Assembly: GCF_016026235.1 (NCBI RefSeq)
Contig: NZ_CP065613.1
DNA length: 64,000 bases
Source of the DNA: Escherichia coli
GTDB lineage: Bacteria; Pseudomonadota; Gammaproteobacteria; Enterobacterales; Enterobacteriaceae
Reading direction: 5' to 3' (one strand)
Numbering within the stretch: the first letter of the stretch is position 1; each line of letters begins with the position of its first letter. Shown here piece by piece: positions 26,480-32,347 of this stretch. The position numbers were made by a program, and so were the translations under genes. The notes under the pieces are model-generated. The model was not told the DNA's origin. It searched no databases and was given only the letters and a program-made list of their open reading frames with translations.

Positions 26480-27211
26480 TTAGGGGGCATGAAAGATGAC
26501 TTTATAACCTTGCTCACCCCAGTGTTGTAAAAGTTCATTTTGCCTTCTCGTTGGTGCCATGCCTGTCCAGACAATCAATGTTTGCGTCGGGAACAGTTCT
26601 GGGCGCGGTGATTCAATGGGATCAGCAAGAACAGAAATGTGCCATCCTGACAATGATAAACGCCATGCTTCCAGCCACAATCGTGCTCTCTCTTCAACAT
26701 TCCATGCCATCAGAATGGCTTCTTTACCGGGCTTACGGCGCATTTCGAAAAGCGAGGCTGCTGCGTATTCAATTAGTGCGCCGTCAAACATACTGCTCAT
26801 AATGCGGGAGGTGTTGTGATCAAGCACGAGACGCTGGCGAACAGGAAGGTAAACATGATTAATCAATTGATCTACTGGGTACTCTCGACCCAGTGAAATA
26901 ATTCTCGCGCGTAGTTTGGCAGGATTAGCCATACGAAGAATTGACATCATCTCTTCTTGCAGGCGGCTCCAGTCATCTTCCGTATCCTGGCTGGTGGTTT
27001 CCAGTAATGCTTTAACTTTGCCTACAGGGACGCCATTACTTATCCAACGCTTGATCTCTTCGATGCGTTGTATGTCTTCTTCATCAAAGAGTCGGTGTCC
27101 GCCTTCACTGCGCTGTGGTTTTAACAAACCGTAGCGGCGTTGCCAGGCCCGGAGAGTGACAGGATTAATCCCGCAACGTTCAGCAACATCACCAATGCTG
27201 TAATAAGCCAC
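26480..27211 (-). CDS. bluR: MerR-family transcriptional repressor BluR (YcgE)
   Basis: 243 aa, N-terminal Mer[37 protein letters not shown] start at 27211. Confidence 0.9.
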
Positions 27212-27405
27212 AATTCCTCCTTGCGGTCATAAATCTCCGTCGCCTGTACACGACCCAATAATACTTTGTACAATATACGCTAAAATTGTACAAAGTATAA
27301 ATAAGATTTCAGCTAAATTGGATGAAACATTATTTTTAATGTGGATTAAATTAAAGCATAACGTATTCATTTTCACGATGATTTACTGAAATCATGTGCT
27401 GAAAA

Positions 27406-28617
27406 TTATTTTTTTTCTGGCCACGCAACTGAAGGGATACCATTCAATTTAGCTTTAGCAAACAGATCCCCCTGAAACATCTCAATTCCTGCGGATTCAA
27501 GCCACATCCACTCTTCTGGTGTTGCCACGCCCATAGCAGAGACTTGAATTTCAAGTGATGTACAGCATTTTATGATCGCCTGAATAATTGCCTGCCGTGG
27601 TCCGCTTTTATGAACATTGGTAATCAATTCCTGACTGATTTTAATTCTGTCAGGCTGGAAGCGTGACAGGAGTAACAAACCAGCAAAACCTGCGCCAAAA
27701 TGATCAATTGCTACACTGATACCGGCAGCCTTTAGCGATTTAACCGCTTCGGCAAACTCATCAAACCGAGATATGACTTCACTTTCAGTAAATTCAACGA
27801 TGATTTGTTCAGGCACCAGAGCATTGGCCTTTATTTCATCAAGTAAAAAAGAGACTGCGTCAGGCTCGTTAACCAGGGTCATAGGTAATAGATTGATTGA
27901 AATCATTTTATCACCGAGCTCAAGTGCGTGTGCCATCGCGAATGCAAGCGCCTTACTTTTAAGATCCGCTGTGTAGATTTCCCCGTCTTTACGCTGCCCA
28001 ACCGCTATAGCTGACGGGCTGTCTTCATTTTTTTGCACAATGGCTTCAAAAGCGATTATCCGCCGCGATAAGGGATCAACAATAGGATGAAAGGCAAAGT
28101 GGTCGTTTATAGTTGGTGAAAGGGTACAGGAATCAAGTTCTTTATCAGATCTGTCAGCGATAAAAAGCCAGGAGTCTTCAGCAGGAATCTCGAAATAGGT
28201 TGATTGTTCGGTTGCAAGGACAAAAGTACGAAAAAATTGTAGCGCTCTGTCATCATAAGTTAGCTGAAATTTTGATGTGCCTTTGTCGAATACGGCCTGT
28301 AAAACGTCATCTCGCTCGTGTAGGCGTAAATCAAATAATTCCATTCCCGCTTTGCCAAAACGGCGAGCAGGCGCGTAATCGCACAGCAGCTCAACAATAT
28401 TATAGTGCCGTGGATCCTGGCATATAGCCCGATATATCATTTTAACCTGTTCTTCCGGACCTTCCAGAAGCTGGAAAAAATGAGAACCATTAAACAGTAA
28501 GATCCCTGTTACGTCAGACTGCATGTTCCTGCGATTTGCAATCGAAACCATTTCTTCGATTTTTTTGACAGGTTCGTCGTCACGTATATGGCTACGATAA
28601 ATAAGGGTGGTAAGCAT
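27406..28617 (-). CDS. bluF: blue-light sensor BluF (YcgF), BLUF domain plus degenerate EAL domain
   Basis: Track ORF trimmed to ATG at 28617 (MLTTLIYRSHIRDDEPV...), 403 aa; BLUF motif ILLFNGSHFFQLLEGPEE. Confidence 0.9.
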   Translation of the reverse strand: MLTTLIYRSHIRDDEPVKKIEEMVSIANRRNMQSDVTGILLFNGSHFFQLLEGPEEQVKMIYRAICQDPRHYNIVELLCDYAPARRFGKAGMELFDLRLHERDDVLQAVFDKGTSKFQLTYDDRALQFFRTFVLATEQSTYFEIPAEDSWLFIADRSDKELDSCTLSPTINDHFAFHPIVDPLSRRIIAFEAIVQKNEDSPSAIAVGQRKDGEIYTADLKSKALAFAMAHALELGDKMISINLLPMTLVNEPDAVSFLLDEIKANALVPEQIIVEFTESEVISRFDEFAEAVKSLKAAGISVAIDHFGAGFAGLLLLSRFQPDRIKISQELITNVHKSGPRQAIIQAIIKCCTSLEIQVSAMGVATPEEWMWLESAGIEMFQGDLFAKAKLNGIPSVAWPEKK

Positions 28618-28930
28618 TAACTGTCCAGGGTAATGGGAGTGGCGAGAGTAAGACGGTAACAGACATATCTTCCGGTGTCTTTCTTTTAATACCAAAACAT
28701 AACTGTTTCTTTGCATTGATAGAAAATGGAAAAAGTTGAACACGAGTTGGCGAAAAATCTTGTATAGTTTGTCAGTTAAATGATGCAATATGTTTTATCA
28801 TAACGTATTGTTTTATATGTATTAGCACTAATTGCAAAAAATTAATTTATCATTCTGTACACATATTTCGTACAAGTTTGCTATTGTTACCTCACTTAAC
28901 ATTGATTAACATTTTTAACAGAGGCGTAGC

Positions 28931-30138: not shown

Positions 30139-30473
30139 AACTTGAGTAAGGTTATAGAATAAACATCAGCTGTATCATCATGCTGGTGCAAAGTGAGCAT
30201 TTCAGGCGTTATGCTTTCTTAATATATCCGCAATATCAGGGGGCAAACAGGAATGGAGAGCGCTCGTTTTCCATTCTTGACGCCTGATATCCCACCTAAA
30301 TTGTTTAATTCTGCCTACATTGTGCTCAATAATTAATAGGTTAGATGAAGATGGAGAAAATTTTATCTTCGGCGTGGATATTTCTTATGCTCTCTACCAT
30401 GCTCTCTGTAGACGCCAGCGCGAGCGAATGAACGTCATTTTCATGTATTAAACCCTTTGTTCGGGACAAGCGA

Positions 30474-31997
30474 ATGCGCAATACACTCATACCCATCCTC
30501 GTTGCGATATGCTTGTTTATTACCGGTGTCGCTATTTTGAACATCCAGCTCTGGTATTCCGCAAAAGCAGAGTACCTGGCGGGAGCAAGATATGCCGCCA
30601 ACAATATCAATCATATACTTGAAGAAGCGTCACAGGCGACTCAAACAGCGGTTAACATTGCCGGGAAGGAATGCGACCTCGAGGAGCAATATCAGCTTGG
30701 CACTGAAGCAGCTCTGAAACCTCACCTGCGCACAATCATCATTCTCAAACAGGGAATAGTCTGGTGTACATCCCTGCCTGGGAATCGGGTCCTGCTGTCT
30801 CGTATTCCTGTTGTCCCGGACAGTAATTTGCTGTTGGCTCCGGCAATCGACACCGTTAATAGATTACCTATTCTGCTCTATCAGAGCCAATTTGCAGATA
30901 CGCGCATTTTGGTTACGATAAGTGATCAGCATATTCGCGGGGCGCTTAATGTACCCTTGAAAGGGGTAAGGTATGTATTACGCGTGGCGGATGACATTAT
31001 TGGACCTACGGGTGATGTGATGACGCTTAATGGACATTATCCCTATGCCGAGAAGGTTCACTCCACAAAATATCATTTCACTATTATCTTTAACCCGCCA
31101 CCACTCTTTAGCTTCTACAGACTTATCGATAAAGGCTTTGGGATTTTGATATTTATTCTGTTAATCGCCTGCGCCGCTGCCTTCCTGCTAGATAGGTATT
31201 TCAATAAAAGCGCAACGCCTGAAGAGATCCTGCGGCGGGCTATAAATAATGGGGAGATCGTCCCTTTTTACCAACCAGTGGTGAATGGTCGGGAAGGGAC
31301 ATTGCGGGGAGTTGAGGTGTTAGCCCGCTGGAAACAACCTCACGGTGGATATATTTCACCCGCGGCATTTATTCCACTTGCTGAAAAATCCGGATTAATC
31401 GTTCCGCTTACGCAAAGCCTGATGAATCAGGTTGCCAGACAGATGAACGCTATCGCGAGTAAATTGCCGGAAGGTTTTCATATTGGAATTAATTTTAGCG
31501 CCTCGCATATTATTTCGCCGACGTTTGTCGACGAGTGCTTAAATTACCGTGACAGTTTTACCCGCCGCGATTTAAACCTCGTTCTGGAAGTTACCGAGCG
31601 TGAGCCATTAAATGTTGATGAAAGTCTGGTTCAGCGGTTGAACATTCTGCATGAAAATGGTTTTGTCATCGCGCTGGATGATTTCGGTACTGGCTACTCA
31701 GGGCTTTCTTATCTGCATGACCTGCATATTGATTATATCAAAATTGATCACAGTTTCGTTGGCCGCGTCAACGCAGACCCAGAATCAACCCGAATTCTGG
31801 ATTGTGTATTGGATATGGCGCGTAAACTTTCGATCAGTATCGTCGCTGAAGGTGTCGAAACGAAAGAACAACTTGATTATCTGAACCAAAATAATATCAC
31901 ATTTCAGCAGGGTTATTATTTCTATAAACCTGTTACATACATCGACCTGGTCAAAATTATCCTTTCTAAACCGAAGGTGAAGGTTGTGGTTGAGTGA
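30474..31997 (+). CDS. pdeG: c-di-GMP phosphodiesterase PdeG (YcgG), membrane CSS-motif sensor plus EAL domain
   Basis: 507 aa; N-terminal TM helix, second TM, EAL-domain motifs (EVLARW, DDFGTGYS). Confidence 0.88.
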   Translation: MRNTLIPILVAICLFITGVAILNIQLWYSAKAEYLAGARYAANNINHILEEASQATQTAVNIAGKECDLEEQYQLGTEAALKPHLRTIIILKQGIVWCTSLPGNRVLLSRIPVVPDSNLLLAPAIDTVNRLPILLYQSQFADTRILVTISDQHIRGALNVPLKGVRYVLRVADDIIGPTGDVMTLNGHYPYAEKVHSTKYHFTIIFNPPPLFSFYRLIDKGFGILIFILLIACAAAFLLDRYFNKSATPEEILRRAINNGEIVPFYQPVVNGREGTLRGVEVLARWKQPHGGYISPAAFIPLAEKSGLIVPLTQSLMNQVARQMNAIASKLPEGFHIGINFSASHIISPTFVDECLNYRDSFTRRDLNLVLEVTEREPLNVDESLVQRLNILHENGFVIALDDFGTGYSGLSYLHDLHIDYIKIDHSFVGRVNADPESTRILDCVLDMARKLSISIVAEGVETKEQLDYLNQNNITFQQGYYFYKPVTYIDLVKIILSKPKVKVVVE

Positions 31998-32128
31998 AAA
32001 TCGATCAGTAAGGCCATAGTGCGGTGTAATTATAGACAGCTAATTAGCTCGTTGCCTCTTGTTACTATTGTTCATTATTTTGTTTGCTATAATTGTTTGA
32101 AAGTTTTGACAGGATTGCCATTAGTAGC

Positions 32129-32347
32129 ATGAACAATAGTAATAATCTGGATTATTTCACTCTCTATATCATCTTTTCCATTGCATTTATGCTGATCACT
32201 CTCCTGGTCATCCTTATTGCAAAACCCAGTACCGGGCTGGGAGAAGTGCTTGTGACGATAAATTTGCTTAATGCCCTTGTTTGGCTGGCGATCAATCTGG
32301 TTAATCGATTAAGGGAAAGACTCGTCAGCCACAGGGATCAGCAATAA
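32129..32347 (+). CDS. ymgF: small inner membrane protein YmgF
   Basis: ATG at 32129 (MNNSNNLDYFTLYIIFSIAFMLITLLVILIA), 72 aa, hydrophobic. Confidence 0.75.
   Translation: MNNSNNLDYFTLYIIFSIAFMLITLLVILIAKPSTGLGEVLVTINLLNALVWLAINLVNRLRERLVSHRDQQ

Follow-up and report, generated by a model that had tools for sequence, protein, structure and literature searches.

An intact K-12-like bluR-bluF/ycgZ-ymgA-ariR-ymgC region with its neighbours pdeG and ymgF in a 64-kb stretch of Escherichia coli DNA

The analysed stretch of Escherichia coli DNA (64,000 nucleotides of contig NZ_CP065613.1, assembly GCF_016026235.1; hereafter the window) contains at positions 26480-32347 what is almost certainly an orthologous, intact copy of the bluR-bluF/ycgZ-ymgA-ariR-ymgC/pdeG/ymgF region of E. 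coli K-12. The locus is already known: it represents a described system whose reading frames are neither shifted nor truncated and whose known control sites are all kept. No sequence evidence contradicting this assignment was found in the window. The BluF/BluR blue-light anti-repressor pathway of K-12, encoded by bluR-bluF/ycgZ-ymgA-ariR-ymgC, was reportedly described by Tschowri et al. in 2009 and 2012. The DNA and its translations show directly that the genes are intact, which domains and key residues they encode, and that the BluR operator and the MarA box are identical to those of K-12. The initial annotation had presented the locus as a described light and cyclic dimeric GMP (c-di-GMP) signalling system in which the BluR repressor, the BluF photoreceptor, four small regulators, and the phosphodiesterase PdeG were all full length. 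The completeness and coordinates of these genes were borne out by alignment with K-12, and the domain and motif checks likewise upheld the view that the system is a described one.

Genes, proteins, and control sites of the locus

E. coli K-12 MG1655 served as the K-12 reference, and each gene was translated and set against the corresponding MG1655 protein. All eight coding sequences from bluR to ymgF had the length, start codon, and stop codon of their K-12 counterparts and contained no internal stops, and the alignments revealed neither frameshifts nor truncations in the genes of the locus. Over 4713 coding bases there were 93 nucleotide versus 22 amino acid differences from K-12 (about 2% nucleotide divergence), and of the two indels inspected against K-12, one (10 bp) follows bluF and the other (4 bp) precedes pdeG, both in intergenic DNA. 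Such a ratio, together with the intergenic indels, is the pattern that purifying selection would be expected to leave. The range proposed for the locus in the initial annotation included all the genes named there, but its end, 32347, is the stop of ymgF, a gene that was left unnamed. Two longer reading frames were rejected. The 460-aa bluF open reading frame (TTG at 28788) is an artefact of the frame finder, since its start precedes the mapped transcription start, and the 84-aa ymgF frame (TTG at 32093) was discarded because the YmgF equivalog model spans residues 1-72 of the ATG-started protein.

When 5426 complete E. coli genomes were searched by megablast with window positions 26000-33000, the locus was covered by at least 80% in 4874 of them, and 319 gave no match. 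The arrangement is thus a syntenic orthologous locus and did not arise by chance. The top match was E. coli FDAARGOS_943 (NZ_CP065615.1) with 99.9% identity, compared to 97.2% for K-12, and the annotations of both FDAARGOS_943 and MG1655 list the same genes in an order matching that of the window locus. K-12 b1162-b1167 has the same gene order, orientation, and gene lengths, and its operator and marbox are the same and equally distant from the start codons. The differences are the amino acid changes listed in Table 1, 10 bp fewer downstream of bluF, and 15 substitutions in the 313-bp bluF-ycgZ control region, none of them in the operator or marbox. FDAARGOS_943 was 99.9% identical over window positions 11112-64000 apart from one 768-bp insertion and carried identical protein alleles of bluR, ycgZ, ymgA, ariR, ymgC, and pdeG. 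It differed in BluF (Y250, N in the window) and YmgF (E36, G in the window), in having an intact iraM without the insertion sequence IS1, and in the presence of a prophage beside potB. Just past the bluF stop, at 27392-27405, both the window and FDAARGOS_943 were 10 bp shorter than K-12; judged by match length (7011 vs 7001 bp), most top-scoring E. coli genomes had the longer K-12 form.

BluR was identical to b1162 at 242 of 243 residues (A152 in the window, T in K-12) and did not differ from the FDAARGOS_943 protein. Pfam matches above cut-off were obtained for MerR_1 (residues 4-71, 67.2 bits) and MerR (residues 5-42, 48.3 bits), and the MlrA_helical (PF22270, 100.6 bits) and MlrA_C (PF22267, 111.2 bits) domains were also found. 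BluR therefore has the same MerR helix-turn-helix, MlrA_helical, and MlrA_C domains as MlrA, from which it differs in being a repressor paired with BluF. Its score against the NCBIfam MlrA equivalog was 268 bits, under the 417-bit cut-off, as expected for a paralogue. Near-identity to the K-12 protein and adjacency to bluF, as in six other genera, indicate that the gene is the orthologue of K-12 BluR rather than MlrA.

BluF contained the BLUF (residues 2-92, 85.5 bits) and EAL (167.9 bits) domains of Pfam. Its six amino acid changes relative to K-12 all fell within residues 156-397, so the BLUF domain was identical, with the flavin-site residues Y7, Q49, and M92 kept and A90 present, as in K-12, where other BLUF proteins have Trp. 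Alignment with PdeG showed that the motifs DDFG, KID, and EGVE are replaced in BluF by DHFG, KIS, and MGVA. All degenerate EAL positions (H177, I193, Q195, T247, H306, S328, M362, and A365) were as in K-12. These eight positions are the ones reverted in the BluF-M8 variant, and BluF's degenerate EAL domain neither binds nor degrades c-di-GMP (PMC3509220). The c-di-GMP part of the earlier label is thus apt for PdeG and the distant YcgR, which belong to c-di-GMP signalling, but not for BluF, which is no c-di-GMP enzyme or receptor (PMC3509220; all eight degenerate positions are kept).

Among the small proteins, YcgZ passed the NCBIfam YcgZ equivalog model (123.8 bits, cut-off 80) and matched Pfam YmgB (PF10798), to which AriR was also assigned with 90.3 bits. 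YmgA and YmgC gave no Pfam or NCBIfam match and were assigned by identity to K-12 (86 of 90 and 82 of 82 residues, respectively) and by position. YmgF passed the corresponding NCBIfam equivalog model (139.5 bits, cut-off 100).

The search of 28618-28930 for BluR operator repeats proposed in the initial annotation recovered the published operator, unchanged from K-12. The BluR footprint comprises a GTACA...GTACA repeat overlapping a TGTAC...GTACA palindrome and covers the -35 element and spacer of the ycgZ promoter (PycgZ), whose transcription start was mapped 36 nt upstream of the ATG (PMC3509220). TGTACA-N8-GTACA at 28856-28874 was the sole exact match within the 64-kb window. In five other genera the operator was kept as TGTACA-N7-(T/C/G)GTACA, and in Pectobacterium the second box reads TGTACg. 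Binding of BluR at PycgZ and its BluF-driven release in blue light are predicted from the identity of the site to the footprinted K-12 operator. The MarA box was the sole match to GCAHWWWWTGYYAAA with at most one mismatch in the window; 2.05 such matches are expected, so this number is not above chance, and the box was identified by its position and the literature. It has been reported to lie 62 bp upstream of the ycgZ start (PMC6900184), and in the window the centre of the box precedes this start by about 62-63 bp. A consensus scan for promoters and terminators did not exceed the number of sites expected from shuffled sequence, and no Rfam RNA family was found within the locus.

According to the K-12 papers from which the mechanism was taken (PMC3509220, PMC6900184), the system would operate as follows. 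BluR, a MerR-type paralogue of MlrA, would bind TGTACA-N8-GTACA over the -35 element and spacer of PycgZ and thereby keep the operon of four genes repressed. Exposure to blue light would, particularly at low temperature, change the BLUF domain of BluF, whose non-catalytic degenerate EAL domain would then bind BluR and release it from the operator. The small proteins, above all AriR/YmgB and YmgA, would act through the Rcs phosphorelay to increase colanic acid and decrease curli, and YcgZ would lower OmpF as well. MarA, via the upstream marbox, would provide a second, activating, sigma-70-dependent input. All sequence elements that these steps require are present in the window, without changes at the critical positions. 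Within this scheme pdeG would stand apart as a neighbour with RpoS-dependent control of its own, encoding a membrane-bound CSS-EAL phosphodiesterase, and ycgR, 26 kb distant, would be an unrelated c-di-GMP effector.

Position of pdeG and divergence from K-12

K-12 PdeG is one of five CSS-EAL phosphodiesterases (PdeB, PdeC, PdeD, PdeG, and PdeN). The window protein contained the CSS-motif domain (PF12792, residues 31-217, 106 bits) and an EAL domain (224.7 bits). Both periplasmic cysteines, Cys67 and Cys98, were present, the WCTS motif was as in K-12, and the EAL active site was complete (EVL281, N340 in NFS340, EVTE372, DDFGTGYS402, KID423, EGVE459, and QQG478). In its 507-aa length, CSS domain, two cysteines, and complete active site, it is like K-12 PdeG (YcgG, b1168). 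As the full-length membrane form, it differs from YcgG2, the N-terminally truncated 283-aa cytoplasmic product of an allele of phylogroup B2 extraintestinal pathogenic and neonatal meningitis E. coli (PMC6385356). The phosphodiesterase activity of K-12 YcgG has been shown via a heterologous phenotype (PMC6385356), and the window protein is a predicted phosphodiesterase with all catalytic motifs kept. PdeG has been described as an RpoS-controlled protein of low abundance and as an interaction hub of uncertain role (PMC5635695).

BluR orthologues were retrieved and their genomic contexts compared in Citrobacter, Pseudocitrobacter, Klebsiella, Lelliottia, Kluyvera, and Pectobacterium. A 64%-identical protein of Erwinia persicina was left out of the set, being MlrA by its neighbours. 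The genes ariR-ymgA-ycgZ were divergent from bluF-bluR in all six genera, and ymgC, pdeG, and ymgF were missing from the orthologous loci of all six. Judging from these contexts, the conserved unit consists of bluR-bluF/ycgZ-ymgA-ariR, and pdeG, ymgC, and ymgF adjoin it on the E. coli side, in agreement with the published placing of pdeG (YcgG) outside the minimal conserved unit (PMC3509220). The module as grouped in the initial annotation consequently holds in that its genes are adjacent and intact, but pdeG belongs to it by position, being missing from the conserved unit in six genera. In Citrobacter, Pseudocitrobacter, Klebsiella, and Kluyvera, a gene of 183-186 aa follows ariR where E. coli has ymgC-pdeG; its products gave weak or faint matches to GerE/LuxR-type helix-turn-helix domains in Citrobacter and Pseudocitrobacter and no Pfam match in Klebsiella and Kluyvera. 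In these genera the conserved unit may have this gene as another partner downstream.

These comparisons bear on the possibility, implied by the grouping in the initial annotation, that pdeG functions within the blue-light module, through co-regulation by BluR or read-through from ycgZ-ymgABC, which would link light to c-di-GMP turnover. The gene lies 335 bp past ymgC on the same strand, a simple scan gave no terminator-like site between them, and both units are RpoS-dependent (PMC5635695, PMC6900184). However, ymgC, pdeG, and ymgF were not found in the otherwise conserved unit of the six genera, no TGTACA pair was present upstream of pdeG, and in K-12 ycgZ-ymgABC forms a single four-gene transcript, with YcgG placed beyond the minimal unit and described as having no known function (PMC3509220). 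We therefore consider this arrangement unlikely.

Another explanation is that the genes are intact but functionally altered, the substitutions of the strain having changed the light response or the control of the phosphodiesterase. Several observations weigh against simple equivalence with the K-12 system. BluF carries six substitutions relative to K-12 in its linker and EAL region (R156, T165, A227, D260, V292, and V397 in the window), PdeG carries seven, including D68 adjoining the redox cysteine Cys67, and any of these may have effects; engineered variants of the EAL domain, through which BluF contacts BluR, are known to antagonise BluR less strongly (PMC3509220). Base 28891, between the -10 element and the start of PycgZ, is the only difference from K-12 in the core ycgZ promoter, and a few differences (28638, 28640, 28673-4) were found in the bluF promoter region. 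The insertion of IS1 into iraM removes one RpoS-stabilising route, which under Mg2+ limitation could reduce the RpoS-dependent expression of pdeG and ycgZ-ymgABC. Finally, expression and function as in K-12 are predicted from sequence identity only. On the other side, no substitution fell on the flavin site of the BLUF domain, on the positions changed in BluF-M8, or on the catalytic motifs or cysteines of PdeG. The changes are conservative natural alleles, the proteins being as in FDAARGOS_943 except for BluF N250 and YmgF G36, and the numbers of nucleotide and amino acid differences given above fit purifying selection. Altered function thus appears quite improbable.

It is very improbable that the locus is a neutral remnant, not yet mutated, in a lineage shedding regulatory inputs (iraM::IS1 and the ycgH pseudogene): an IS1 insertion does lie 1.5 kb upstream, ycgH just downstream is frameshifted, 319 of the 5426 complete genomes have no match, and the unit is reported missing from O157:H7 (PMC3509220), but all eight frames retain K-12 length despite 2% nucleotide divergence, both inspected indels are intergenic, the regulatory boxes are conserved across genera, and ycgH is a pseudogene in K-12 too and is therefore uninformative about the window lineage. 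An orthologous and intact copy of the K-12 region remains by far the best description of the locus.

Repeated boxes at the bluR promoter

Two perfect TTGTACAA palindromes, 20 bp apart, were found upstream of bluR at 27286-27293 and 27266-27273, and a third TGTACA is located in the leader at 27245-27250. These 49 bp of promoter and leader thus contain 3 of the 12 TGTACA hexamers of the window. The published transcription start of bluR precedes the start codon by 54 nt (PMC3509220); relative to it, the boxes would lie in the spacer between the -35 and -10 elements and over the -10 element and the start.

The upstream region of bluR in E. coli reads TTGTACAA-N12-TTGTACAA. Citrobacter, Kluyvera, and Pectobacterium have TGTACA-N13-TGTACA, Klebsiella has the same pair and a third box, and in Pseudocitrobacter and Lelliottia TATACA stands in place of one box. 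The spacing between boxes was N13-14 in five of the seven genera. In the seven-genus alignment of this region (49% mean column identity), no blocks were invariant other than both boxes, the start codon, and the ribosome-binding site. The GTACA core of the MlrA box at csgD (AAAGTTGTACA-N12-TGCACAATTTT) recurs in the BluR operator and in the boxes upstream of bluR. The latter resemble the MlrA box in their wide N13-14 spacing, in contrast to the ycgZ operator with its short spacer of N7-8. No TGTACA pair was found in the own promoter of E. coli mlrA, so the boxes are not a general feature of the MlrA family in E. coli.

The boxes may form an operator for BluR or MlrA, giving the blue-light pathway autoregulation or a cross-input, a tentative proposal that we regard as possible but rather more doubtful than probable. 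No description of bluR autoregulation or of boxes at the bluR promoter was found in the accessible papers or in full-text literature searches, which were partly swamped by the word "blur." The boxes are a lead rather than a finding, and they are a property of E. coli generally, K-12 included, and not of this window.

Surrounding features and implications

The gene order in the window was mfd, potABCD, phoPQ, icd, iraM, ycgX, bluR, bluF, ycgZ-ymgA-ariR-ymgC, pdeG, ymgF, ycgH, minCDE, umuDC, dadAX, cvrA, and ycgR. Coordinates of the locus and related features are given in Table 1. The e14 prophage of K-12 was not found in the window.

Table 1. Features of the blue-light locus and of related genes in the window
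Feature	Position	Strand	Description
iraM split by IS1	24059-25159	-	IS1 at 24255-25022, 768 bp
bluR (ycgE)	26480-27211	-	MerR-family MlrA-like repressor; 243 aa, GTG start, 1 aa change vs K-12
Candidate operator, bluR promoter and leader	27245-27293	-	Three TGTACA hexamers in 49 bp; sequence as in K-12
bluF (ycgF)	27406-28617	-	BLUF-EAL blue-light sensor, BluR antagonist; 403 aa, 6 aa changes vs K-12
Divergent bluF/ycgZ control region	28618-28930		313 bp; length as in K-12, 15 substitutions, no indel; identical to FDAARGOS_943
MarA box GCACTAATTGCAAAA	28825-28839	+	Upstream of PycgZ; identical to K-12
BluR operator TGTACAcatatttcGTACA	28856-28874	+	Overlaps -35 and spacer of PycgZ; identical to K-12
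ycgZ	28931-29167	+	First gene of BluR-repressed operon; 78 aa, 2 aa changes vs K-12
ymgA	29210-29482	+	90 aa, 4 aa changes vs K-12
ariR (ymgB)	29511-29777	+	88 aa, 1 aa change vs K-12
ymgC	29890-30138	+	82 aa, 0 aa changes vs K-12
pdeG (ycgG)	30474-31997	+	CSS-domain EAL c-di-GMP phosphodiesterase; 507 aa, 7 aa changes vs K-12
ymgF	32129-32347	+	Small division-associated membrane protein; 72 aa, 1 aa change vs K-12
ycgR	58493-59227	-	PilZ flagellar brake; 244 aa, 5 aa changes vs K-12; 26 kb off, outside the locus

The iraM gene, called lost in the initial annotation, is interrupted but not deleted. Its frame is normal for 46 of 107 codons and then continues into IS1 sequence, and both halves of the gene remain. 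The element has the ends GGTAATGCTGCCAACTT and AAGTTGGAGTCATTACC, is flanked by the 9-bp target duplication ACCAGTGTA at 24246-24254 and 25023-25031, and contains an InsB-like open reading frame of 167 aa at 24504-25007. It was matched at 99% identity or more by over 3800 E. coli records annotated as IS1 family transposase. The alignment with FDAARGOS_943 breaks exactly at the IS1 site with a 9-bp overlap, and the iraM::IS1 junction was carried by no complete RefSeq E. coli genome.

The ycgR gene was correctly located and is intact, but its strand had not been given: the plus-strand reading of these coordinates contains 10 stop codons and was rejected, the gene being on the minus strand. YcgR contained the Pfam domains PilZN (PF07317) and PilZ (PF07238), showed in translation RRRYFR and DLSLGG, which correspond to the c-di-GMP-binding motifs RxxxR and D/NxSxxG, and scored 440.5 bits against the NCBIfam YcgR equivalog (cut-off 400).

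Other features of the window lie outside the blue-light locus. The autotransporter gene ycgH (32747-35409) was split into frames of 157 and 721 aa; it is a frameshifted pseudogene also in K-12 and FDAARGOS_943. The only Rfam family in the window was the C0299 small RNA (RF00119, 111.9 bits) at 43515-43593 on the plus strand. A 1.9-kb segment between dadX and cvrA (53076-54977) is not present in K-12, which has an IS1414 remnant there. A 469-aa open reading frame at 53005-54414 (minus strand), annotated as hypothetical in FDAARGOS_943, gave a weak LRR_4 match (31 bits, cut-off 27) as its sole Pfam hit, and cvrA (55035-56771, minus strand) was full length. Past ymgE, at 59756-64000, synteny with K-12, which has ycgY, treA, and dha genes, was lost. 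This part includes a TonB-dependent receptor frame of 663 aa (59732-61723, minus strand) and then, by the FDAARGOS_943 annotation, modD, methyltransferase, and ATP-binding cassette transporter genes. Next to potB, FDAARGOS_943 carries a lambdoid prophage with IS66 and ISSso6, and window positions 11100-11112 are uninterrupted, with the order potABCD...mfd.

The result matters little beyond its use for annotating the strain, in which the K-12-like blue-light/Ymg biofilm switch is complete and PdeG has its full-length membrane form. The region does present a contrast between an intact light input and an input to RpoS from Mg2+ starvation, iraM, that is broken by IS1. A wider reach could come only from the TGTACA pair at the bluR promoter, which suggests a simple feedback or cross-regulation step. 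If BluR or MlrA binds there, current models would be missing a negative autoregulatory loop or a cross-input from the curli regulator.

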